From Promethearchaeota archaeon (lineage in GTDB: Archaea; Asgardarchaeota; Heimdallarchaeia; Hodarchaeales; Hodarchaeaceae), in assembly GCA_048938105.1 (NCBI GenBank), contig JBHLMN010000005.1, positions 55,218 through 119,217 on the forward strand: a stretch of 64,000 bases of DNA, given 5' to 3'. Shown here piece after piece: positions 3,070-64,000 of the stretch. The stretch's first letter is position 1. Each line of letters begins with the position of its first letter. The position numbers and the translations under genes are program-made. The notes beneath the pieces were generated by a model. The model was not told where the DNA came from. It searched no databases and worked only from the letters and a program-made list of their open reading frames with translations.

Positions 3070-5844
3070 CTAGGGGAGGAAGAAGGCATCAGGCCATCCC
3101 TGATACTCGTTTATCTTATTGTCAATCTCTTCCATCAATATGATTGTTTCTTGAATTACTTTTACTATCTTTCCGAAGAAATTAACATCATTCTCTGTTA
3201 ATGTTATGTTCTTGTGGTCTTTTAACCATTTCTGACATACTTGATACCCTCCAATATAAAAACTGTAGACCTCTTTTGGTACTCCTTTGAAATACTGATT
3301 CTCATTTATTCTAATTCTATTATCTGAAGTATATCGCACTCTTTTGATTACTGTGTTTGTAGTATTACCATTTCCTCCTAGTCTAACCTTGTGATCATTT
3401 AATCTCTCTGGCTTCAATAAATGTAGATCTATTAACTCACTTCCCATTTCTTTTAGTTCATAAAATAATTCTAATTTATTAGGAAAAAGGATTCTTGGGA
3501 AGTCGATTTTCAAAAAGTTTTCGTATCTCTTTCGATATTCTTTTGAATGGAGGATGGCATATACATAATAGACAATATCTTTAGCCGATGGATTGTTATT
3601 TATTTTGAATTTTTCTTCTATGAACATCTTAAATCTTTTTGAGAAATTTATCTCTCTCTTAAGACCATTTCTTGTTTTTTTAAATAAAAAAAGTGGAAAG
3701 ATTGGCGCATTATTACCTGGTCGTGTTGCCATGACACCTAACTCTATTATGTCTTCTGTAATCTGAATATCTCTCCAAGGAGCGGGTCTAGAATTCCTTG
3801 ATACAATTAAACCTAAATTTTCACCAGTGATCATGTGTTTCATGACTTTATTTCTTGGTCTCTCATGAAATCCTCTTGATTTACCCGTATAAAATGTATA
3901 TCGTATTTCAAATGGTCGATAGTGAATGGGTACGATATTCTTTTCAATGCAATTGCGTAACTTAATCTTAGTCATAGTTTTATTTAAGCCATGTTCTCTA
4001 AGATCGTAAACAGATTTCTCTAATGCCCATTGTCGTTTGTCTTTCATCAAATTATGTTTTTTTCTGAAACAATCTTCAGGTAATAGAATTAGATCTTCAA
4101 CAATTTCCTTAACTTTTTCTGGGGTATATTGTATTGTGAGCTGATCCTGTCCAGTCATAATTCCTACAGAGTAGATTGGAAAAATATCTGTAATTTTCCA
4201 CCCAGATTTATATTCTACCCATCTTTTCATCTCCAATTGGTAAAACATATACCATGGACTAAATGAATCAATCTTTTTCCAATCAATTGTTAAGATATCG
4301 TTATTTTTTAGAAATTCATATTTATTTTCTCTTAGTCCCCACAGATCGAATTTGAATATGTCCACATCTCCACTTTTATTTGGATTTTTTATGAAAAATG
4401 ATATGCAAGCTCCTTGTTGGATGTCAAATACATTTTCATCTTTTGATCCATCTGGACACTTTTCTTTCCGTCGTGCATTTCCATGAAGATCAAGAATAAA
4501 AATATCGGTAAAAGTTCTCATTAGTTGTTGTCTCATACCTCGAAAAGTAGGATTGTCCAGAAAACTGTGGTTAGTAATAAATGCTAATATACCATATCCT
4601 GTCTTCTCTATCCGCCATTGACCAAACCTGATAAACTTTACATAATCATCATTGAGCCACTTAGGATTCTTCTCCCCTAATGGTTTCCCATCAACCTCAA
4701 AATAGTTGGATATCCTAGTTTCATCAGTTACCCTACCTCTTAAAAGATCATCAATCCATTGTGAGTTATTAGCAGAATGACCTGAATAAGGAGGATTACC
4801 TATCACTACAGAGATTGGAAAGTTCATTTTAATTCTATAGGCATCTTCTGCTTCCTTTGAGAAGAATCTAGAAAGTGATGAATCCGTGATAAGAGTTTCC
4901 CCTCTTTTATAAGAGCCCTCTAAGGTATTAGCTAAATATATTCCTAATCGTGCTTGATTCTGAAAAGTATAACCAGTTTCTCGTAGTTTTAATCCAAGTT
5001 TATAGTGAGCTATTGTGTATGGAGCTATTAATAGTTCAAAGGCAAAAAGCCTTGATAAAAGATTGTTACTAACATAAGAGTTCCAATTTTGCTGGAATAT
5101 TTCTTCATTCAAAGTATTATGCTTTTTTTTAAAGAAGTTATATGTTAAGTCAATTATATGGCTTAAAAAAGTACCTGTTCCAGTTGTTGGATCAAGAATT
5201 TGTACTTTCGGTATTTTTTCCCCATTTACAATATTATAAGATTCATCTGCAAGTCCATCCTTACAATTGAAATGTGTTTGAAGAATCAAATTGACTGAAC
5301 GAACTATAAATGAAACTACAGTATCCGGAGTATAAAAAACCCCACGATTAATTTTCTGAGATGGATCATAATATTCTAGGAATTCTTCATAAAAACGGAT
5401 TATTGGATCTTCGATATTCTTATTTTTTCCATCTTCCCAGATAACAGAATCAATATCGACATTTTTAAGTATCTGAACTAATTCATGGATTCCAAGATCT
5501 TCTAAACTCATTCTAGGAATTTGATCTTTGCTGAATCTCAATAACCTATTTAGAAAAGGATTGACCTTTGGAATTAAAGATAGGATTTTATCCAAGCAAA
5601 ATTCTTTTGATTGGGTAGTTCGCAAAGAAAATAAACCAAGCGTTACCGTCTGAGCATACATGTCTGCAAACGATTCCAACGTGAGATTATCTGATAATGC
5701 GCTTTTTATTTCTTGAAAAATATAGTGAAAATGCCCACTCTCCTCTTCCTTAGAAAATGTTCGGTGTACGTTCCCACGAATATTGATAGCAATTTGAGCT
5801 AAATTTTTGGAGAGTTCTTGAGAGGTTGTTATAATGTCTTCCAT
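3070..5844 (-). CDS. Type ISP/IIG-like N6-adenine DNA methyltransferase with C-terminal specificity domain, no N-terminal nuclease
   Basis: FADMYAQT, RGVFYTP, ILDPTTGTGTF, VIGNPPY, DDYVKF and C-terminal IGGYQV-x2-KWLK. Confidence 0.88.
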   Translation of the reverse strand: MEDIITTSQELSKNLAQIAINIRGNVHRTFSKEEESGHFHYIFQEIKSALSDNLTLESFADMYAQTVTLGLFSLRTTQSKEFCLDKILSLIPKVNPFLNRLLRFSKDQIPRMSLEDLGIHELVQILKNVDIDSVIWEDGKNKNIEDPIIRFYEEFLEYYDPSQKINRGVFYTPDTVVSFIVRSVNLILQTHFNCKDGLADESYNIVNGEKIPKVQILDPTTGTGTFLSHIIDLTYNFFKKKHNTLNEEIFQQNWNSYVSNNLLSRLFAFELLIAPYTIAHYKLGLKLRETGYTFQNQARLGIYLANTLEGSYKRGETLITDSSLSRFFSKEAEDAYRIKMNFPISVVIGNPPYSGHSANNSQWIDDLLRGRVTDETRISNYFEVDGKPLGEKNPKWLNDDYVKFIRFGQWRIEKTGYGILAFITNHSFLDNPTFRGMRQQLMRTFTDIFILDLHGNARRKEKCPDGSKDENVFDIQQGACISFFIKNPNKSGDVDIFKFDLWGLRENKYEFLKNNDILTIDWKKIDSFSPWYMFYQLEMKRWVEYKSGWKITDIFPIYSVGIMTGQDQLTIQYTPEKVKEIVEDLILLPEDCFRKKHNLMKDKRQWALEKSVYDLREHGLNKTMTKIKLRNCIEKNIVPIHYRPFEIRYTFYTGKSRGFHERPRNKVMKHMITGENLGLIVSRNSRPAPWRDIQITEDIIELGVMATRPGNNAPIFPLFLFKKTRNGLKREINFSKRFKMFIEEKFKINNNPSAKDIVYYVYAILHSKEYRKRYENFLKIDFPRILFPNKLELFYELKEMGSELIDLHLLKPERLNDHKVRLGGNGNTTNTVIKRVRYTSDNRIRINENQYFKGVPKEVYSFYIGGYQVCQKWLKDHKNITLTENDVNFFGKIVKVIQETIILMEEIDNKINEYQGWPDAFFLP

Positions 5845-6075: not shown

Positions 6076-6924
6076 ATGGACATAAGACATCTATGGCGAG
6101 GAAAATCTCGCGGAGTAACACCAGTTGTTGCCACAGTTCTTTTGATCGGTTTGGTGGCGATTGCAGGCATTGCAATCGCTTTGGTGATATTTGGGACGAT
6201 AAACTCACCTCCACCGATTGAAGTAAGAATTCTCTCTATTTCTGATTTTGAGACAACAGACACCAATACCTTAATCGACCAGTTTTCTGTGACCCTTCAT
6301 AACGTAGAACGTACCAACCTACGTTTAGAAGTTGATTCTTTTACATTGGAGTATAAGAATGGTACAATGATACCTGGATGGGGTATGGATCCTAAACAAT
6401 CCGAAATATACCTATCTGCTAGAACAATAGAAACAATTCCTCTGATATGTGATCCAATCGCGGGTATTGAATTACCTCCAGACCAAGACGCAATTTATAT
6501 CGAAGTCACAGTTTTCCCTAAAGATAGTACCAGTCAGCGATCTGCAAGAACATTTCGTTCGAATTTACTTCTAATTGGGAGTACACATGGTCCCATATTC
6601 TTGGAATACCAAGCTACAACTCTGAATCTGGTTGATACTGGATTGAAAATTAATTTTATAACAATCAATAATGGAAGCAAAGATCAAAGTTTCAAACTTG
6701 AGCTCTATACCAATTCTCCTGAAAACATTACTTTTACAATAGGTAATATTAACCGTACTACGGTATTATTTTCGATCGCGGGTTACAACACCACAACTAT
6801 AAACGTTACTGTCTTCCCGACTGATCGTGTTACTGTTGGTGACTCATATATTGTTGTAGCTTTCCTCTGGAGGCAATCTGATCTGCAGTTAGTTTCCTCT
6901 GTGAGTTTTGTTTTGACTTACTAA
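6076..6924 (+). CDS. Archaeal type IV pilin-like protein (class III signal peptide)
   Basis: KSRG|VTPVVATVLLIGLVAIAG matches the PibD/FlaK cleavage motif, followed by beta-rich domains. Confidence 0.85.
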   Translation: MDIRHLWRGKSRGVTPVVATVLLIGLVAIAGIAIALVIFGTINSPPPIEVRILSISDFETTDTNTLIDQFSVTLHNVERTNLRLEVDSFTLEYKNGTMIPGWGMDPKQSEIYLSARTIETIPLICDPIAGIELPPDQDAIYIEVTVFPKDSTSQRSARTFRSNLLLIGSTHGPIFLEYQATTLNLVDTGLKINFITINNGSKDQSFKLELYTNSPENITFTIGNINRTTVLFSIAGYNTTTINVTVFPTDRVTVGDSYIVVAFLWRQSDLQLVSSVSFVLTY

Positions 6925-7081: not shown

Positions 7082-9193
7082 CTAATTTTTCATTTCTTCT
7101 TCTAAAATAGCATCAATTCTTTTTATTAAGTCAGGATTATGAGATTTATTAGCTGTTCTTAATTCCTGAGCTAATTCAAGTAATCTGTTTTTTGATTTTG
7201 TGGATATTTTGAATGGATTTAGGATCAGTGTTTTCATCATCTCTTTTGGTTCTAATTTAAGTGTGTCGCCACCATAACATCTTCCAGCATTTCTTAAGGA
7301 GGTAGTAGTGGTATTAGAATTAAAAATCACCCAAAAAAGTGTCAAAATTTCTTCTGAGAGTTTCTTCTTCATTTTAGGATAAATCATAAGAAAAGTATTC
7401 AATGGCCTAATTTGTGCTTCATTCAGGATGAATCTCGGTTTTCCACGGCTTAAATAAGTATATAAAAAATATGGAATGGCTCTTTCTTCAGTTTTGTACC
7501 AAAACTTTCTTGTCTTAACTAAGCTACCTTTATGAACATCCTGTTTTAGTCCAAATTTAATGTAATTTTGAAGATCTTGGTCTTGAATGCTTTTTATTTC
7601 TTGTTGGATGTAAAGTAACCAAACCTTTCTATTTTCCTTCTTTAAAAAATTAAAATCTTCCTTTGAAAAGATATATTTTTGGACGTAGCGTGTTTTAGTT
7701 AAAGTTGGAACAACATACTCAGGCTTAATCTTATGATTCGTTAATTCTTCATTAGTAAATGTAAAAAAATTATTGTTTCCTGTAGCAATACCTCGCATAA
7801 CCTTGAAAAAAGATGAAAATTCAACGAGTTTATCATTTCTTTCATAATCTGAGAACGCTTCTGTTCCAGTCCAATTCCGTTCAGGGTCAAGTTCTGTCTG
7901 TTTTTTACTGTGTAATTCTCCATCTGACCATTCAAAGACCTCATTACTTTCAATTTTGAGATAATTCAGAATTTTTTCCTTTGAGGTCCATTCCTTCAGT
8001 ATCAAAAGTTTTGTTACATCTGTTTCTTGTGGTTTCTTTCCTTCAATTGTGAAAATACACCCAGCAGTATCAACACCAGGGAATACATTTAACGAATGAT
8101 GAAAAACAATTATATAGGGAATCCTATATCTTTTCTTTAAGATTTTTTTCAAATAATAACTGTTTCGCGACTCAAAAATTATTGTTGGAGTAATAAACAC
8201 CATTCGACCATTTTTAATTAAAAGTTTCAAAGATTTAAGGATAAAGTACATGAATAAACTGGAAATTCTATTGAATTTTCCTCCAAAGTAATTTTCAATT
8301 TCATTTCCTATCTCCTCCTTAATTTTTGGAGAGATTACATGATGACGAGAATAGGGAGGATTACACACAATACAATCAAATCCATTTAATTTAGATTCTA
8401 GATAGGAATCAAGGCCTGAGTTCAAGGCCGAAACATCGTTGATACTATGATTGAAGCTATTTACAGGCTTTGTGAGAAAATCACCTTGGATAATTTCTAC
8501 ATCATAGTGTGAATTGTACAAATTAACCTTACATATTTCATATAACAAAGGATGAAGTTCTACCCCAGTTATTTTCCCACGAAACTCAGATGATATAGTT
8601 TGAAGAGCGTGAATAAAGGTACCTGGCCCGATACATGGATCTAGAATGTTTCGTGGATTGTTTTTTAGTGATAATTCAACCATAAATTCTGCTATTTGAT
8701 TTGGAGTCCAAAATTGCCCTAGTTTTCGCCTATACTTTTGATCTAAAACCTCTAAATATATAGATGACATTAATTCTTGTGAGTGGTTTTCAAAGTCTTC
8801 ATCAAATTGGAGTAAAGATTTCGAAATAATAAGAGAACTTAAATTGGCAATAATGTCCAGAATAGAGGAAATAAATGTCTGAGGGTAAGTTTGTTTGAGA
8901 AGGTCAGAGACTGTCTGATAAGTGGCATAAATCGTCTTACTATCCAGTGGACCTGTGCCATAAAAGGCAATAAATCTAAGACGATTGAGAATGAGTAAAG
9001 CAGCAAGCTTTCTAAAGATATCTAATGATTCTAAAGGAATCTCAGTCAATTTAGAAAAAGATGATAATAGATCTAAATCATAGTTGCCTAATTTTTCGAT
9101 AAAATTAACTGGAATGGAATTAATAATGGACTGAAATGTCCTTTCTAGCAATGGCGGAGAATTTTGAGTCATTATTTTCTTGTTCCATTTCAT
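7082..9193 (-). CDS. N6-adenine DNA methyltransferase (Eco57I/TaqI-like, gamma class)
   Basis: LGQFWTP, ILDPCIGPGTF, CNPPY, RGIATG and YGGDTLKLEPKE. Confidence 0.88.
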   Translation of the reverse strand: MKWNKKIMTQNSPPLLERTFQSIINSIPVNFIEKLGNYDLDLLSSFSKLTEIPLESLDIFRKLAALLILNRLRFIAFYGTGPLDSKTIYATYQTVSDLLKQTYPQTFISSILDIIANLSSLIISKSLLQFDEDFENHSQELMSSIYLEVLDQKYRRKLGQFWTPNQIAEFMVELSLKNNPRNILDPCIGPGTFIHALQTISSEFRGKITGVELHPLLYEICKVNLYNSHYDVEIIQGDFLTKPVNSFNHSINDVSALNSGLDSYLESKLNGFDCIVCNPPYSRHHVISPKIKEEIGNEIENYFGGKFNRISSLFMYFILKSLKLLIKNGRMVFITPTIIFESRNSYYLKKILKKRYRIPYIIVFHHSLNVFPGVDTAGCIFTIEGKKPQETDVTKLLILKEWTSKEKILNYLKIESNEVFEWSDGELHSKKQTELDPERNWTGTEAFSDYERNDKLVEFSSFFKVMRGIATGNNNFFTFTNEELTNHKIKPEYVVPTLTKTRYVQKYIFSKEDFNFLKKENRKVWLLYIQQEIKSIQDQDLQNYIKFGLKQDVHKGSLVKTRKFWYKTEERAIPYFLYTYLSRGKPRFILNEAQIRPLNTFLMIYPKMKKKLSEEILTLFWVIFNSNTTTTSLRNAGRCYGGDTLKLEPKEMMKTLILNPFKISTKSKNRLLELAQELRTANKSHNPDLIKRIDAILEEEMKN

Positions 9194-9686: not shown

Positions 9687-10460
9687 TTACACTTGAAATA
9701 ATGATTTCGCTACATCTACCATTTTAGCGAACTTTGCGTTTTTCGTTTTCATATAAGAGATCAAACGATCTAAAACGTTAATTCGATACGCATGGCCAAT
9801 ACAAGCTGGATGAAAGGTATAATTTAGTATTCGGAGATTTGATTGTATGTCTTCCATCTCTAGGATAGCATCAAATTGGCTTTTCCAAATGTCAAAAGCA
9901 ACTGTAGGAGATTGTTGATGGTCTTCAAAAATGACCCAATCATCTAGAAACCATTCTACTGGAAATTCAACCATTTTATTTTGTGATTCGGGAAAACTAA
10001 GAAAATATGGATGATCATCTGCCATCAAACTGGAATCATAGATATATCCAGCATCCATAATTAATTTCAAGGTATCTGATGACAGTTTAAAGTAAGGTGC
10101 ACGAAATCCATATACTTTTTTCGCATATTGTTCTAAAATTTTCGTTGTATCATCTATTATGGCTTTCTCCACATCAATTGAGAGAGTGTCAAAATATTCA
10201 TGGAGATATCCATGTGCTGCTATTTCATGTTCATTGGCAACAATTTTTTTCGTTAATTCTGGGTATTTCTCGGCCACCCAACCACATACGAAGAATGTTG
10301 CTTTAATTTCGTGCTTGTTGAGTAAAGAAAGAATTCTTGGGACTCCCCTTCTGATAGCAAAAAGCCCTTTTGAAATCCTTCCTGGCTCTTCAAGCTGTCT
10401 AACTTGAACACTATCCGCATCAAAATCAAACGTTATGCAAACTGTGATTTCATTATTCAA
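9687..10460 (-). CDS. Polysaccharide deacetylase (CE4, PuuE/PgdA-like)
   Basis: TFDFD, ATFFV, HEIAAHGYLHE, GFRAPY and YDSS. Confidence 0.9.
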   Translation of the reverse strand: MNNEITVCITFDFDADSVQVRQLEEPGRISKGLFAIRRGVPRILSLLNKHEIKATFFVCGWVAEKYPELTKKIVANEHEIAAHGYLHEYFDTLSIDVEKAIIDDTTKILEQYAKKVYGFRAPYFKLSSDTLKLIMDAGYIYDSSLMADDHPYFLSFPESQNKMVEFPVEWFLDDWVIFEDHQQSPTVAFDIWKSQFDAILEMEDIQSNLRILNYTFHPACIGHAYRINVLDRLISYMKTKNAKFAKMVDVAKSLFQV

Positions 10461-10488
10461 CTTTAATACCTCTTAAATCTGGCAACAA

Positions 10489-11421
10489 TTACTTTTTTCG
10501 CAGAATTGGTAGTGTCATACAATGGGGTCCTCCACCACCTCGTGATAACTCTCCTCCTTGGATGGGTAAGACCTCAACACTCCTTTCTTGTAACTCTCTG
10601 ATTATACGCTCATTCCACTCGTAAATGACGCATTTTCTTCGATTAAGGCAGACGACATTAGCTCCAAACAGGTATAATTCATTATCAGAAATAGAAATCC
10701 CCTCTGCAGCATTATAATTCTCTCTGATGAAATCCATTAATGGTAAAAATTCTATTGGTTCATCTTTATGCAGTACTCTTACTGGAAAAGTCTCTATAGA
10801 AGCAGGATGATATAAAAAAAGATCTTTGTCGATAAACATTAAGCCTCCATCTAAATGAACTCGCCATGAAGGTAATGGAATGATTACTATTTTGTCTACA
10901 ATTTTTTTGTCTAAAACTAATCTGGTTATTTGTGAAACTCCTTCCTCATTTGTACGAATTCCGTTGGAACCAATTAGTAAGGTCTGTTCATCTGGATACA
11001 CAAAATCACCTCCTTCCAACAACCCAGGCGCATTAATGGATACGAATTGAGGTATTCCGAGCTTTTTTAACGATCGTGCTACAAGAGTTGGCTCTGGTTT
11101 TCTTACCTGATGGGCCATACGCATCTGGATAAAACCTGCGTTGGTAATTGCACCTGTATCGCGAGTATAAACCATGTTTGGATCAATAATTGAAAAATCT
11201 TGCTCCTCTAAGAGGTTATTGAGTAGAACCACATCCACATTTTCTTGTTGTAAAAGATCACAGAAAGCATCATGTTCTTGTTGGAATCGTCGCCAGTAAA
11301 CTACGTCTCTAAAAGTCAGTTCTTGATAAGAGTCTTTTGTAACTTGGTTAACTTCAGTACCAGGACGAAACATTAGGACTTTCCGTAAAGGATAGTATTC
11401 ACAAGTTGCACCGAATTCCAA
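10489..11421 (-). CDS. Arginine deiminase / amidinotransferase family enzyme
   Basis: YTRD, LEGGD, HLD and GGGGPHCMTLP (catalytic Cys). Confidence 0.88.
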   Translation of the reverse strand: MEFGATCEYYPLRKVLMFRPGTEVNQVTKDSYQELTFRDVVYWRRFQQEHDAFCDLLQQENVDVVLLNNLLEEQDFSIIDPNMVYTRDTGAITNAGFIQMRMAHQVRKPEPTLVARSLKKLGIPQFVSINAPGLLEGGDFVYPDEQTLLIGSNGIRTNEEGVSQITRLVLDKKIVDKIVIIPLPSWRVHLDGGLMFIDKDLFLYHPASIETFPVRVLHKDEPIEFLPLMDFIRENYNAAEGISISDNELYLFGANVVCLNRRKCVIYEWNERIIRELQERSVEVLPIQGGELSRGGGGPHCMTLPILRKK

Positions 11422-11594
11422 CGAATCACCACATTCAGTACACAGTTAAATATGCAGAAATATTATAAGCTAAATAGTTCTTCGTGAAATTTTTTATGCT
11501 ATTCTGAGACCATTTGGTACTTTTCGGTCAGGTTGAAGTAGAACAACTTCCTCATTATTTTTCCATTAAAACTCTCAAGATCAAGACTTCAGAC

Positions 11595-11760
11595 GTCAAT
11601 TACCACTGAATGAATGCATTCAGTGGTTTGTAGCTAGAACAGTCCCACGAATCAACGAGGAAATTACTATGGTCATGGGAAGGACCGCTACATTAGGACT
11701 ATTGACAGAAGCCCTCCTGATCTCGGACATGCCAAAATCAGATAGGTTACGGGCAGCATT
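11595..11760 (-). ncRNA. Predicted omegaRNA (reRNA) scaffold overlapping the tnpB 3' end; guide from the flank GTCTGAAGTCTTGATC...
   Basis: Established TnpB architecture plus the perfect 11-bp hairpin ACCACTGAATG-CATT-CATTCAGTGGT before TTGAC. The 5' boundary is approximate. Confidence 0.65.
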
Positions 11761-12807
11761 AAGGTCAGCATTCAATTGGAAAGAACAGTTACTACAAACA
11801 AAGGACGATTGAAAACGACGATTATTAGCAGAAATAGAACCACAACACGAACACCTCTGCGAAGTATAACGAGGATTGACAAATAAAACTGTCTTCCCAA
11901 CCTTTTCAGCACGTTCAATGATAAATTGTTCGAGTTGGTAATAAGCCCAATTACCAAATTTCCGACGAAGTTTTTTTGAGGTTCTTTTCCCCTTTTTGCT
12001 ATCTTGTTTTAACCCACGAATGTTTTCTAATACAATACAATTATTAGGCATATTACAGATCCATTTAGCTAGCTTACGATTTTCATCAGTCATAAACCGT
12101 CTCTCTCGACCACTCACCAACCGTAATTTACGCTTGGCGGATCGAGTGCCTTTGGACTGAAGGTGTTTTCGTAATTGTTGATACTTCCACTTCACAGCTA
12201 GGATATGATTAGTGGGATAGAATGTATTATTGGAACAAACGGCTATCCGTTTAATACCCCGGTCTACTCCTAGAAAGGAAGAAGGTTCTTTCACAGGAAT
12301 ATCTGGCAACTCCATTCTTAAATACGCAATGATTTTCCTCCTTCTTTTGTTATAATAGAGTGTTAGTGAAGTGATCCGCCCAATAACAAGGTGCTGTTGG
12401 AAATATTTAGGGATTACTAACGGATAGTGTTTTCGACCTGCGATTGTACTTAGAGAAATCACCCCTGTTTCTAAGAAGGGGGTAAACGTACGTTGATTAT
12501 AACGGATCCCACTTAACAGCTTTTTAATAGGTCGCCTATAGTTGAATTTTTCCCGTTTAAGCATGTCAGCGGCCATATCGCGAGCGCACTGGACAAGTGA
12601 TGACTGTAAACAAGGATATCTTTTACGAAGATCCTTATACGTTTCAAAGTGGAGAGTATATTTGTTGAAAGTATTTTTTGACCATCCACTATCAATAACA
12701 TACTGAACTGCTTTGTTATAAGTTTTTATCGTCTCTAACAGCTCATTATCAGCAGGTAGCGGACACTGGATAGTTCGCTGCATGACAACTGGATTGGGGT
12801 TCACCAA
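11620..12807 (-). CDS. tnpB: RNA-guided endonuclease TnpB (Cas12f-like clade)
   Basis: RuvC-I GVDRG, RuvC-II VLENI, Zn finger CSCC...CSNC and RuvC-III NADLNAARN. Likely start is ATG 12783. Confidence 0.95.
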   Translation of the reverse strand: MVNPNPVVMQRTIQCPLPADNELLETIKTYNKAVQYVIDSGWSKNTFNKYTLHFETYKDLRKRYPCLQSSLVQCARDMAADMLKREKFNYRRPIKKLLSGIRYNQRTFTPFLETGVISLSTIAGRKHYPLVIPKYFQQHLVIGRITSLTLYYNKRRRKIIAYLRMELPDIPVKEPSSFLGVDRGIKRIAVCSNNTFYPTNHILAVKWKYQQLRKHLQSKGTRSAKRKLRLVSGRERRFMTDENRKLAKWICNMPNNCIVLENIRGLKQDSKKGKRTSKKLRRKFGNWAYYQLEQFIIERAEKVGKTVLFVNPRYTSQRCSCCGSISANNRRFQSSFVCSNCSFQLNADLNAARNLSDFGMSEIRRASVNSPNVAVLPMTIVISSLIRGTVLATNH

Positions 12808-13261
12808 CTATTTAAGCTTAAATGAGAGTAATATCAAAGTATTTTTGCTTTATAACAGGGTGTATAGGTATTTAACATTTGTGTTATTTGTAATATTCTA
12901 TATCATTGTATGTGATGGTGTAATAGTACAAATAATCTTTTTTTCTTTCCCCAATTCATCCGCTGAACGAATTCACATGTTTCCTTGGGAGTCCTACATG
13001 AAATCCGCAATTTGCTTTGGGGGGAAATTAACAACGGCAATAACTTGTCGATTAATGAGATCATTTTTCGTATATAATTGTGTGATTTGAGCGGACGATT
13101 TTTTTATACCTAGAGATCCAAAATCAATCTTTAACTTATAAGATGCCTTTCTTGCGCTTGGGAAGTCAGTAATTTCAATGATTGTACCAACTCGCATATC
13201 AACTTTCTCAAAATCATGCCAATTTATCAAAACAATGCACTCCTAATTCAATCCAATGTAC

Positions 13262-14131
13262 TTAAGTAGATTGATTTTCAATAATTTTTAGGATTATCTG
13301 TAACAGTTTGAATCCAACATGAAGAGTTTTATTAGCGATATCTTTCTCTGGATTATAAGCGGTGAGAGCTGCGGCCTTAATCTGAAAATTTTCACCAATT
13401 AGCTTAAGAGCTATCTCCATTTCATCTAGAAGGAGTCCTTCAGATGCAGGAAAGTCAACACCTGGAGCTACAGAAGGATCAATCACATCAATATCAATAT
13501 GGAGATACACATCTTGAGTTTGCGACCGAAGGTCAAGTAACTTAGGTAGAAGGCCATCTTGTATTCCTTTTTCCTTTAATGTTACATTCTCAACCACTAG
13601 AACCTCGGTACTTTCAAGAAGTTCACGTTCTTCAGGATCAAGGTCGCGTGCTCCAACATGCAGAGTCCAAGATTCTTGAATAGGGCGCATATTTTCAATT
13701 ATATTACTTATGTCTTGAAAACATTGACCTGTGGCAATTGCTAACCCCATACCGTCAAGAAATCCACTAGGAGTTGTTTTTGGAGTATTAAAATCACCAT
13801 GAGCATCAAACCAGATTATTCCTGGTTTCGGTTCATCAAATCCTGCAAGGGTGCCCAAACAGGTGTTACAATTTCCTCCAAGAATGAAGGGAAAAAAGCC
13901 ATCAATTAATACCTTTTTAACAACCTTTCCTAGAGAATTATTTAAAAAAGCAATCGTTTTCAATTCATCTTTATCTTCTTTTAGAAGTTGTATCTTCTCA
14001 ATTTTTACCTGATAACCTAGGTCTCTTAAATTCTGATCAATTCCTGCGTCTAAATAGTGGATTGGTCCCATTCCCATACCAACATTCTCCTTACCCAAGT
14101 GAAATGGAACGTAAATGAGAGCGATCTTCAA
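13262..14131 (-). CDS. Arginase/ureohydrolase family protein
   Basis: GGNC (for GGDH), DAHGDFN, SGFLDGM and HIDIDVIDP. Confidence 0.9.
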   Translation of the reverse strand: MKIALIYVPFHLGKENVGMGMGPIHYLDAGIDQNLRDLGYQVKIEKIQLLKEDKDELKTIAFLNNSLGKVVKKVLIDGFFPFILGGNCNTCLGTLAGFDEPKPGIIWFDAHGDFNTPKTTPSGFLDGMGLAIATGQCFQDISNIIENMRPIQESWTLHVGARDLDPEERELLESTEVLVVENVTLKEKGIQDGLLPKLLDLRSQTQDVYLHIDIDVIDPSVAPGVDFPASEGLLLDEMEIALKLIGENFQIKAAALTAYNPEKDIANKTLHVGFKLLQIILKIIENQST

Positions 14132-14173
14132 AACTTTGTTACCTCCAATTTTAGTAAAAGCGTATCTATATCA

Positions 14174-15259
14174 CTAAGGTTTTATAATAGCTTTCATGAC
14201 TCGGAGATGCTCAACGTCGTCTAAAGCTTTTGCAGCTTCGTCTAATGAGTACTCATGACTAATTATGTTTTTAAAAGGGTAAGTAGTTGAATATCGCTTA
14301 ATTAAATTAACAGCTAAATAAAAGTGGCTTAAATCACTACCCCAAGATCCTTTTATTGTCAAATGTTTCTTATTAATATCCAAATGTGGATTGATCTTCA
14401 CATCCCCTGCATTTGTGTATTGACCAACTATAGTATAAGTTCCCCCATCCCTAGTCATTTCCAACCCTTCTTTAACTGCAGTAGGAACCCCTGTAGCTTC
14501 AATAGTAACATCAGCCCCCCGATTGTGTGTGTGGTTTAGCACTTGCTGGACTCTCGCTTGAGGATCCACATCCATGATGTTAATCGTTGTGTCAATCCCA
14601 AAATAATTCGCAATCTTCAAACGATGATCAGGACCTCCAATTAAGAAAACTTGAAATGCTCCACTTAATTTCGCTAATAATGCTGCCATTAAACCAACTG
14701 GTCCTGATCCTTGTATAGCAACAGTATCACCGAGATTGATATCAGACCGTTGGATCGCGTGAATTGCAGTGGGTAAACCACATCCAGCTGCCATAAATGT
14801 TTTCATAAAAGCGTTATATGGAAGCTTGATAATCTTGACTCCAGGTTTTAGATAAATAAATTCAGACCACCCGCCTAGTAGCCCTTCTTTTGCTGAATAT
14901 GTTATTCCATATACCTTTCTTTTAGGACAACGAGTACTCGTCTTTGCAACAAGACAATACCAGCAATTATTACATGTTTCATGTACATCCAGAAATGTTA
15001 CTGGATCACCCTCTTGGAGATGTACTCCATCAATATCCCAAACATCACCATTTATTTCTTCAATAATTCCAGTAGAGACATGTCCTGGGATAATCGGATA
15101 AGGAACCCCAGCTAGATGGCCTTTCTGAAGATGTACATCTGTCCCGCATACCTCAGAGTAAGCTGTTTTTACTAATACGGCTCCTGGTTCCAAACTTGGA
15201 TATGGTTGTTCCTGTAATTCAATTGTTCCGTCTTTTTTCATTATGACCGCTTTTACCAT
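14174..15259 (-). CDS. Zinc-dependent alcohol dehydrogenase (MDR family)
   Basis: CGTDVH, GHV, structural Zn C-x2-C-x2-C-x8-C and GSGPVG. Confidence 0.9.
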   Translation of the reverse strand: MVKAVIMKKDGTIELQEQPYPSLEPGAVLVKTAYSEVCGTDVHLQKGHLAGVPYPIIPGHVSTGIIEEINGDVWDIDGVHLQEGDPVTFLDVHETCNNCWYCLVAKTSTRCPKRKVYGITYSAKEGLLGGWSEFIYLKPGVKIIKLPYNAFMKTFMAAGCGLPTAIHAIQRSDINLGDTVAIQGSGPVGLMAALLAKLSGAFQVFLIGGPDHRLKIANYFGIDTTINIMDVDPQARVQQVLNHTHNRGADVTIEATGVPTAVKEGLEMTRDGGTYTIVGQYTNAGDVKINPHLDINKKHLTIKGSWGSDLSHFYLAVNLIKRYSTTYPFKNIISHEYSLDEAAKALDDVEHLRVMKAIIKP

Positions 15260-62703: not shown

Positions 62704-64000
62704 ATGCTCCGAACACGAGGGTACAGGTACGAATTACGGGTCAACAACAAAGAACGGACGCAATTGACCAAATATGCTGATATAGCTCGATTTGCCTGGA
62801 ACTGGGGGTTAGCTGCGAGGAAGCAGCGGTATCAGCACCAAACAGGTGCAGCTCGTTATACCGATGCCATGAAACAGCACAAAGAATTAAATCGCTTGAA
62901 AAAGACCGCCTATCCCTGGATGTATGAAGTCTCGAAGTGTGTGCCCCAGGAAGCCTTACGAGACCTGGATCGTGCCTATCAAAATTTTTTCACCAATCTA
63001 CACCAAAGAAAACAGAAACAAACCAGCCATAAGATAGGATTCCCCACGTTCAAGAAAAAAGGCAAGTCTAAGGACAGTTTTCGCTTGACTGGCGTGATTC
63101 GCCTTTTTCCCGAGGTAAAACAGGTTCAGTTACCTCGCTTGGGCAACTTACGTCTCAAAGAGAAGCCAAATTTACCCGAATCCGCACGGATCCTGAGTGC
63201 TACGGTTTCTCGTCTCGTTGATCGCTGGTATATTGCTCTTACTGTGAGAGAGGAGCAACCTGATCCTAAACCAAACGACGGGCCTCTGGTTGCTCTGGAT
63301 AAAGGATTGGCTGTCTTTGCGGTGTTATCTTCGGGGATTGTTATTCCCACCCCTAAATTCCTCCTCCGTCAAGCACGGAAACAGCATCGTTTATCGAAAG
63401 CTCATTCTCGAAAACAGAATGGGTCACATAATAAACGGAAGTCCGCCCTCCGCTTAGCCCGCTTCTATCGTCGCATTACTAACCAAAGGCATAATTTTCT
63501 CCATCAAACCTCCACCTATCTAGCCAAAAACCACAGTGTGATAGTTACTGAGGATTTACATGTTAAAGGATTAATGCAAAATAAAAAGCAAAGTAAATAT
63601 TGGGCCGATCTGTCCCATGGCATGTTTCAGCGTTTACTCACCTATAAAGCATCTTTATATGGTTCTATTGTGATCGCGATCGATCGCTGGTTTCCTTCCT
63701 CCAAATTATGCTCTAATTGCCTTTATTTCCATCGTGAACTGACGCTATCTGATCGTCTCTTTCGTTGTCCGTTATGTGGGGTGGTTTTAGACCGTGATTA
63801 TAATGCTGCGTTGAATATAGCCAATTATTATTATATCCATCAACACTTACTCTTTCCCGTCGCCGAGAGTTCTGCGGAGACTTTAAATGCCTGTGGAGAG
63901 GTTGTAAGACCTGTGTTTCATCAGGTTTTAGACCGTGATTATAATGCTGCGTTGAATATAGCCAATTATTATTATATCCATCAACACTTACTCTTTCCCG
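62704..64000 (+). CDS. tnpB: RNA-guided endonuclease TnpB (IS607-like), 3'-partial; absent from the ORF track
   Basis: Manual translation gives MLRTRGYRYEL...ARFAWNWGL...GFPTFKKK...ALDKG...VTEDL...FPSSKLCSNC...CPLC...DRDYNAALN, with no stop before the window end. Confidence 0.93.
   Translation, partial: MLRTRGYRYELRVNNKERTQLTKYADIARFAWNWGLAARKQRYQHQTGAARYTDAMKQHKELNRLKKTAYPWMYEVSKCVPQEALRDLDRAYQNFFTNLHQRKQKQTSHKIGFPTFKKKGKSKDSFRLTGVIRLFPEVKQVQLPRLGNLRLKEKPNLPESARILSATVSRLVDRWYIALTVREEQPDPKPNDGPLVALDKGLAVFAVLSSGIVIPTPKFLLRQARKQHRLSKAHSRKQNGSHNKRKSALRLARFYRRITNQRHNFLHQTSTYLAKNHSVIVTEDLHVKGLMQNKKQSKYWADLSHGMFQRLLTYKASLYGSIVIAIDRWFPSSKLCSNCLYFHRELTLSDRLFRCPLCGVVLDRDYNAALNIANYYYIHQHLLFPVAESSAETLNACGEVVRPVFHQVLDRDYNAALNIANYYYIHQHLLFP
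63783..64000 (+). repeat. Direct tandem duplication, period 141 bp (at least 77 bp identical: 63783-63859 and 63924-64000)
   Basis: GGTTTTAGACCGTGATTATAATGCTGCG...CTCTTTCCCG occurs twice. Confidence 0.95.

Follow-up and report, generated by a model that had tools for sequence, protein, structure and literature searches.

The csaA gene of a Hodarchaeales archaeon is split by a 1,403-bp insertion that is very probably a non-autonomous, tnpB-only (IS1341-type) element of the IS605 group. It occupies positions 11595-12997, on the minus strand, of the 64,000-nucleotide stretch of DNA that was analysed (the window), lies directly 3' of a conserved motif and has no target-site duplication. Assignment to IS200/IS605 had been made in an original prediction from the sequence alone, and target and terminal motifs, element ends, DNA guides and the Y1 TnpA of sister elements now all agree with it. 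Both junctions between csaA and the element had been quoted exactly on the minus strand, and removal of 11595-12997 does restore the predicted peptide FMSEVL (...ADFM joined to SEVLIL...). Excision would nonetheless not rebuild a whole CsaA, because the rejoined gene is 334 rather than 333 nt long: the A-run at 11562-11558 holds one base too many, a +1 frameshift that throws the final ~22 codons out of frame, and codon 11575-11573 encodes Arg in place of a Gly conserved in 7/7 readable relatives. The gene is therefore a pseudogene even without its passenger. This second lesion, the worn ends of the element and the failure to find a TnpA in the genome were all missed by the original prediction.

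What remains of csaA comprises a 5' part (codons 1-78; 12998-13230, minus strand), recognised by its reading frame and by a match to TIGR02222 (CsaA) above the model cut-off, and a pseudogenised 3' part (11494-11594, minus strand), delimited by comparison with relatives. With its first two bases the element finishes Met78 and introduces a TAG stop (to 12994), leaving a truncated product of 78 aa. The second lesion is most simply read as decay following the knock-out; the extra base in the A-run may instead be an assembly error. With close matches in just 8/20 congeners, csaA looks from its distribution like a dispensable chaperone gene, and tblastn gave a single further match to it in the host genome, a weak one (32%) on contig C11 that falls inside a 699-aa frame which, judged by its size and NCBIfam matches, is probably MetRS. 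The gene belongs to a conserved cluster (9687-15259, minus strand) encoding a dehydrogenase, an arginase-family protein, CsaA, an amidinotransferase-like protein and a deacetylase-like protein. Since the element is co-oriented with this cluster, upstream transcription could run through tnpB and its omegaRNA; the insertion could also affect the downstream gene. Elsewhere in the window, a 703-aa adenine DNA-methyltransferase-like protein (7082-9193, minus strand) shows weak type II/type I restriction-modification matches, and no NCBIfam model matches its neighbours at 3070-5844 (924 aa) and 6076-6924.

The empty csaA alleles whose existence had been predicted were found in three congeners (G009, G003 and G011), in each case uninterrupted and in the same gene order as in the host. 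In G003 the gene carries TTCAT followed by 19/20 matching bases of the flank that would serve as guide; in G011 it carries TTCAT and one mismatch within the first 16 flank bases; and in G009 the motif position reads TTTAT. The exact 15-nt empty-site joint is present in G003 and G011 and absent from the host assembly (G000). All three belong to other species, so these alleles demonstrate the ancestral empty state and not a present-day target population. When 13005-12998 is joined to 11594-11584, the empty site folds into a hairpin of 7-8 bp, with the TAM paired to guide bases 5-8 and the junction in the loop, which could hinder single-strand targeting at this locus; such target hairpins are not general among the insertion sites of the family (mean z -0.19, 18 sites).

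Related copies fix both the boundaries of the element and its target motif. A left-end profile run on the copies in the host genome and on loci from relatives and metagenomes yielded 35 distinct left-end sites, and in 29 of them 12-17 nt (14 or 15 nt in 24) separate the end of TCAT from the left DNA guide, with the full TTCAT preceding the left end in 27. The chance expectation for TCAT is 3.6% per site, giving a binomial p of 2e-36 that ignores the relatedness of the elements, the insertion sites themselves all being different. At the opposite end, TTGAC closes 41/42 right ends under a search pattern that allowed three endings. Because other copies start with A or T at the same base after TTCAT (A in 26/29), and because the bases following the terminal TTGAC vary and are GT in 1/42 right ends, the GT that stands at both junctions of the window copy is a coincidence, and the 2-nt ambiguity originally attached to the register 11595-12997 disappears. 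The proposal that TTCAT is the transposon-adjacent motif, for which the 5' flanks of other copies were the suggested check, thus gains broad support: in the window it lies outside the element at 12998-13002 (minus strand), as the putative TAM of TnpB, and the closest relative outside the host genome (L099, 87%) also begins directly after TTCAT. Exceptions are the C4 copy, which at 91% identity is the nearest sister and reads TTACT at this position, and five further sites where TCAT is missing from the expected spacing, most of them with degenerate ends or shifted spacing.

Elements of the IS608 type recognise their motifs by base pairing under a simple rule, in which TCAT calls for a left guide GAnA and TGAC for a right guide CAnG. 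The left guide GAAA was found where the original prediction had placed it, at 12983-12980 (+15 to +18 of the element), and across the family (n=35) the corresponding bases read GAAA in 21, GAGA in 10 and GATA in one, so that GAnA is kept in 32/35 and only its free third base varies. The right guide is CAAG in 39/42 elements; that of the window copy is CAAA, with the loss of one pair. Family alignment and folding place the left guide within a structure (12949-12997, minus strand) made of an outer stem (12990-12985/12954-12949) and an inner hairpin (12979-12961). The outer stem shows compensatory changes across the family and is intact in the window copy, but the hairpin inside it is weak there (-2.7 kcal/mol, z 0.1), compared with -9.0 kcal/mol in C4 (left structure z -2.4) and -12.4 in the best-paired sisters. 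In the left ends of L016, L024, L041, L056, L065, L068, L072 and L079, a covarying outer stem of 5-7 bp encloses guide and inner hairpin and sets the guide in an internal loop facing a conserved purine-rich run. By family comparison the right end (11595-11630, minus strand) consists of the guide (11630-11627), an 11-bp hairpin (11627-11602; z -5.4) bearing a 4-nt insertion relative to sisters, and the terminal TTGAC (11599-11595). Subterminal hairpins are thus strong on the right and, on the left, clear in the family and in C4 and degenerate in the window copy. The principle that DNA guides pair with the TAM and its terminal counterpart (TEM) is set out by Meers et al. (10.1101/2023.03.14.532601).

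Folding and covariation predict an omegaRNA scaffold that overlaps the 3' end of tnpB (11595-11742, minus strand) and comprises stem 1 (11742-11716), stem 2 (11714-11696), stem 3 (11691-11687/11634-11630) and then the right-end hairpin, with the loop of stem 2 (GTCAA, 11706-11702) complementary to the terminal TTGAC and able to form a pseudoknot. The last 148 nt of the element, together with the flank, fold with z = -4.5. Applied to 35 sequences, a model with five helices finds 93.9% of cells paired and compensatory change in 20/33 pairs and in four of the helices; none of 500 shuffles and none of the slid controls reached its score, in a test that relatedness inflates and with a structure drawn from the same sequences. 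The pairs of the pseudoknot are invariant (99.4% paired), and what they demonstrate is therefore conserved complementarity, with no covariation of its own. At E<=5 nothing in Rfam matched the element. Pseudoknots of this kind, with the terminal motif as one strand, have been described for the omegaRNAs of ISDra2 (PMC10097598) and of Halobacterium (PMC12558985). The predicted RNA guide is the 16 nt of csaA at the 3' flank (11579-11594, minus strand), a length assumed from ISDra2. The host assembly holds no TCAT followed by a 10-nt seed match to this guide, and hence no evident self-target. Guide bases 5-12 can also pair with stem 2 of the scaffold: an unconstrained fold with the guide sequestered reaches -60.5 kcal/mol, against -54.0 for a native-like fold before addition of the pseudoknot helix (about -4), so that by calculation the two are of similar energy, and the window guide is the third worst of 42 natural flanks in this respect.

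The protein that would wield this RNA is a TnpB of 387 aa (11620-12783, minus strand; ORF, profile, alignment and structural model), whose stop codon lies within the right-end hairpin. Its length from the ATG at 12783 and its intact RuvC site are as originally predicted: D174, E253 and D340, like the zinc-finger residues C311, C314, C330 and C333, are invariant in 41 family proteins. It scores 152 bits against guided_TnpB (NF040570; cut-off 100) and matches PF07282 and PF01385. A TATA-like box, TTAAATA (12809-12815, minus strand), ends 25 nt before the ATG and recurs in sister copies; as a putative archaeal promoter it favours the 387-aa start. A sigma-70 promoter and terminator scan stayed at chance level with models not suited to archaea. 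Comparison with the C4 copy gives a dN/dS of 0.058/0.189, about 0.3, and position 131, a Tyr in 39/40 proteins, is a His in the window copy. Look-up of the exact protein elsewhere returned no copy, and named close homologues come from Hodarchaeales and other Asgard archaea. The predicted structure (pLDDT 88) best matches As/Sp/OsCas12f (Z 21-22.4, rmsd 7-8 with 335-346 residues aligned); the TnpB proteins of ISDra2 (Z 15-17) and of ISFba1 (Z 16.6) score lower. The description 'Cas12f-like' in the original prediction therefore holds for the fold and fails as a statement of membership: no CRISPR-like repeats were found between 5 and 20 kb of the window, nor at 67 loci of the family whose flanks are short (about 1.2-1.5 kb). 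A second, unrelated TnpB occupies the far end of the window (62704-64000, plus strand; guided_TnpB 261 bits), and its 3' ~140 nt appear three times around an N run just past the window end, which is probably a scaffolding artefact and, less probably, a true duplication of an omegaRNA region.

Searches of the host assembly (99% complete, 65 contigs) by HMM, and by tblastn with eight sister TnpAs, found no Y1 TnpA, and it is on this ground that the window element is called non-autonomous. The TnpB zinc-finger family is matched 23 times in the same genome, and a Y1 match occurs in 3/23 genomes of the order. Among sister elements, 15/51 loci with enough flank encode a TnpA that is divergent and shows the HUH and catalytic-Tyr motifs, and these sisters reach 77% identity in TnpB. 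The 130-nt spacer of the window element (12816-12945, plus strand) shows a weak signal, through a sister profile and a degenerate N-terminal motif, of a worn remnant of the tnpA 5' part and intergenic region. Shuffles scored as high against the profile of tnpA-bearing sisters in 6/300 cases for the window, 1/300 for the C4 copy and 0/300 for L099, and pairwise alignment gave the remnant no significance; descent of the spacer from the 5' region of tnpA is probable on this weak sequence signal. Serial internal deletions of tnpA are seen in L019, L017, L029, L021 and L039, where the left hairpin is joined to differing points of the gene.

The host genome contains two further full copies, on C4 (91% identical) and C14 (72%). 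The former (L024; G000 C4:157653-159050) has better-preserved ends, and its TTACT flank may reflect a mutated flank, an adjacent deletion or an off-motif insertion; in a search for its empty allele, relatives aligned with the upstream sequence only. An orphan left end that belongs to this subfamily (G000 C63:160298-160375) follows TTCAT, lacks tnpB and lies ~135 nt upstream of a membrane-protein-like ORF, and a gene-less, PATE-like derivative of ~430 bp (G000 C14, about 379485-379913) combines a TTCAT flank, a family-type left end, an omegaRNA-like 3' part and a TTGAC end. The window copy itself is aged, as its damaged left inner hairpin, CAAA right guide, Y131H substitution, decayed host gene and a genome in which no TnpA was found attest; with tnpA lost and its ends drifted, it is probably immobile or nearly so.

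Taken by analogy with better-known relatives, the life of such an element would begin when a Y1 HUH TnpA inserts a single-stranded circle 3' of TTCAT, without target duplication, the target being picked through pairing with the left DNA guide GAAA. Transcription across tnpB and the right end would then yield an omegaRNA whose last ~16 nt are the csaA flank. Excision would be scarless, leaving the TAM abutting that flank, and the TnpB-omegaRNA complex would cut csaA copies in which TTCAT and flank are so joined, be they the excision joint or an incoming empty allele, whereupon repair from an occupied copy would put the element back. The occupied allele would be immune, since 1.4 kb separate TAM from guide match. 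Peel-and-paste transposition by TnpA, scarless excision, cutting of the joint by TnpB and recombinational restoration are all described by Meers et al. (10.1101/2023.03.14.532601). In the window copy tnpA would since have been lost, the ends would have drifted and csaA would have decayed after its knock-out, and the nuclease may still work.

How much of this machinery survives is where the nearest alternative, a sub-case of the IS605-group reading, departs from it: the element would be a dead relic of the same origin whose ribonucleoprotein no longer cuts, the cause being Y131H, a stem 2 that has weakened or a guide that the scaffold sequesters. The loss of a near-universal Tyr, the lower energy of the guide-sequestered fold, the poor rank of the guide among natural flanks and the decay of both element ends and csaA all speak for it, but the tnpB frame is open and full length, every catalytic and zinc residue is kept, dN/dS is about 0.3 and all five omegaRNA helices pair in the window copy. 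We regard a relic as rather unlikely and judge that the nuclease probably still works; if it does, there is a good chance that its TAM is TCAT/TTCAT. A bolder proposal concerns the family as a whole, which would be a Hodarchaeales-centred, still-mobile TnpB lineage near the root of Cas12f1, structurally nearer to Cas12f1 than to any solved TnpB and acting as an asymmetric dimer on a single omegaRNA. The ranking of structural matches invites this idea, as do the best PDB sequence matches, which are to Cas12f, and PADLOC Cas12f models that score up to 130 bits. These model matches are not specific, however, for the unrelated TnpB in the window reaches 235 bits on a Cas12f model; identity to Cas12f is only about 20%, the N-terminal module (residues 1-161) is 35-40 residues shorter than the ~195-200 residues of Rh/OsCas12f, and the TnpB of ISDra2 is a monomer (Nakagawa et al., PMC10097598). 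No report of a dimeric TnpB was found in the open-access literature, and a homodimer prediction for the window protein (score 0.00) carries no weight either way. We hold the proposal to be improbable.

Two further readings would place the insertion outside the IS605 group altogether. The element might be an IStron or a bulge-helix-bulge intron that is spliced from csaA mRNA so that the gene still works, a thought encouraged by its co-orientation with csaA, the seamless junction left on removal and the hairpin of the empty site with the junction in its loop. That hairpin is not a general feature of the family's targets, though, and the downstream frameshift means that splicing would not yield a whole CsaA. 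Intron boundaries of the group I kind pair an exon-terminal U with an intron-terminal G, and no register of the present boundaries combines the two; just 214 nt precede the tnpB ATG. Having no Rfam match and a frameshifted host gene, the IStron or group I intron was rejected, as was the bulge-helix-bulge intron, the junction fold containing no such structure, and we hold intron-like removal to be highly improbable. Least credible of all, to the point of being almost negligible, is mobilisation of an IS607 or DDE type, for which the GT at both junctions would be a 2-bp target-site duplication. The single GT among 42 right ends and the predominance of A as first element base run against it, the sisters carry a Y1 HUH TnpA instead of a serine recombinase, and the IS607_TnpB model NF038280 scores 50 against a cut-off of 350; the duplication was rejected because the flanks of other copies disagree with GT.

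Like ISDra2 and ISGst1-5 of Geobacillus (10.1101/2023.03.14.532601), the non-autonomous IS605-group element that is left in possession of the field has subterminal hairpins, sits 3' of a 5-nt motif that its insertion did not duplicate, carries DNA guides pairing with TAM and TEM, has full-length sisters with Y1 TnpA, and encodes a TnpB with RuvC and zinc finger as well as an RNA scaffold that overlaps the 3' end of tnpB and whose pseudoknot involves the terminal motif. It differs in its motif pair, TTCAT/TTGAC, where ISDra2 has TTGAT and GstTnpB2 TTTAT (TTCAT is the TAM of GstIscB; Meers et al., 10.1101/2023.03.14.532601), in the extra covarying outer stem at its left end, in a TnpB about 14-17% identical to that of ISDra2 in structural alignment, and in its Asgard host. 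IS1341-type, tnpB-only elements of Halobacterium (PMC12558985) likewise have sense-overlapping omegaRNAs in an archaeon, but belong to a different host and sequence family, and a Y1 TnpA acting in trans was not found in the present assembly. With the aCas1-associated TnpB elements of Asgard archaea (Altae-Tran et al., PMC10691335) the family shares host group and effector, its partner being a Y1 HUH TnpA with IS605-type ends and not aCas1. Cas12f1 (AsCas12f, SpCas12f1, OsCas12f, CnCas12f1) provides the closest solved folds, the same order of WED, REC, RuvC and zinc finger, and an expected T-rich 5' motif, whereas the window family has transposon ends at many sites, a single RNA in cis, no CRISPR array found, the shorter N-terminal module and a score on NCBIfam Cas12f2 of 107 against a cut-off of 450.

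IS200/IS605 elements normally have ends, TAM and guide that can be read directly. Every feature described here belongs to the known IS605/TnpB system and no new mechanism is involved; the novelty lies in the member itself, a family from Asgard archaea whose TTCAT/TTGAC pair is well supported. Within the open-access literature, a scope that leaves most subscription papers outside, no TnpB with a TTCAT or TCAT motif was found, nor any Asgard IS605 TnpB with a measured TAM. Since variation in the left guide is confined to its unpaired third base, the guide-pairing rule finds a clean natural experiment in this family. Were the improbable Cas12f-like dimer reading true, the family would represent an extant intermediate linking monomeric TnpB to dimeric Cas12f. 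As it stands, it supplies a fully specified candidate RNA-guided nuclease from Hodarchaeales, complete with protein, scaffold, guide, a motif drawn from ~30 independent insertions and sisters with matching TnpA, among which a consensus-like member (L043, L086) would make a better bench candidate than the worn copy in csaA.
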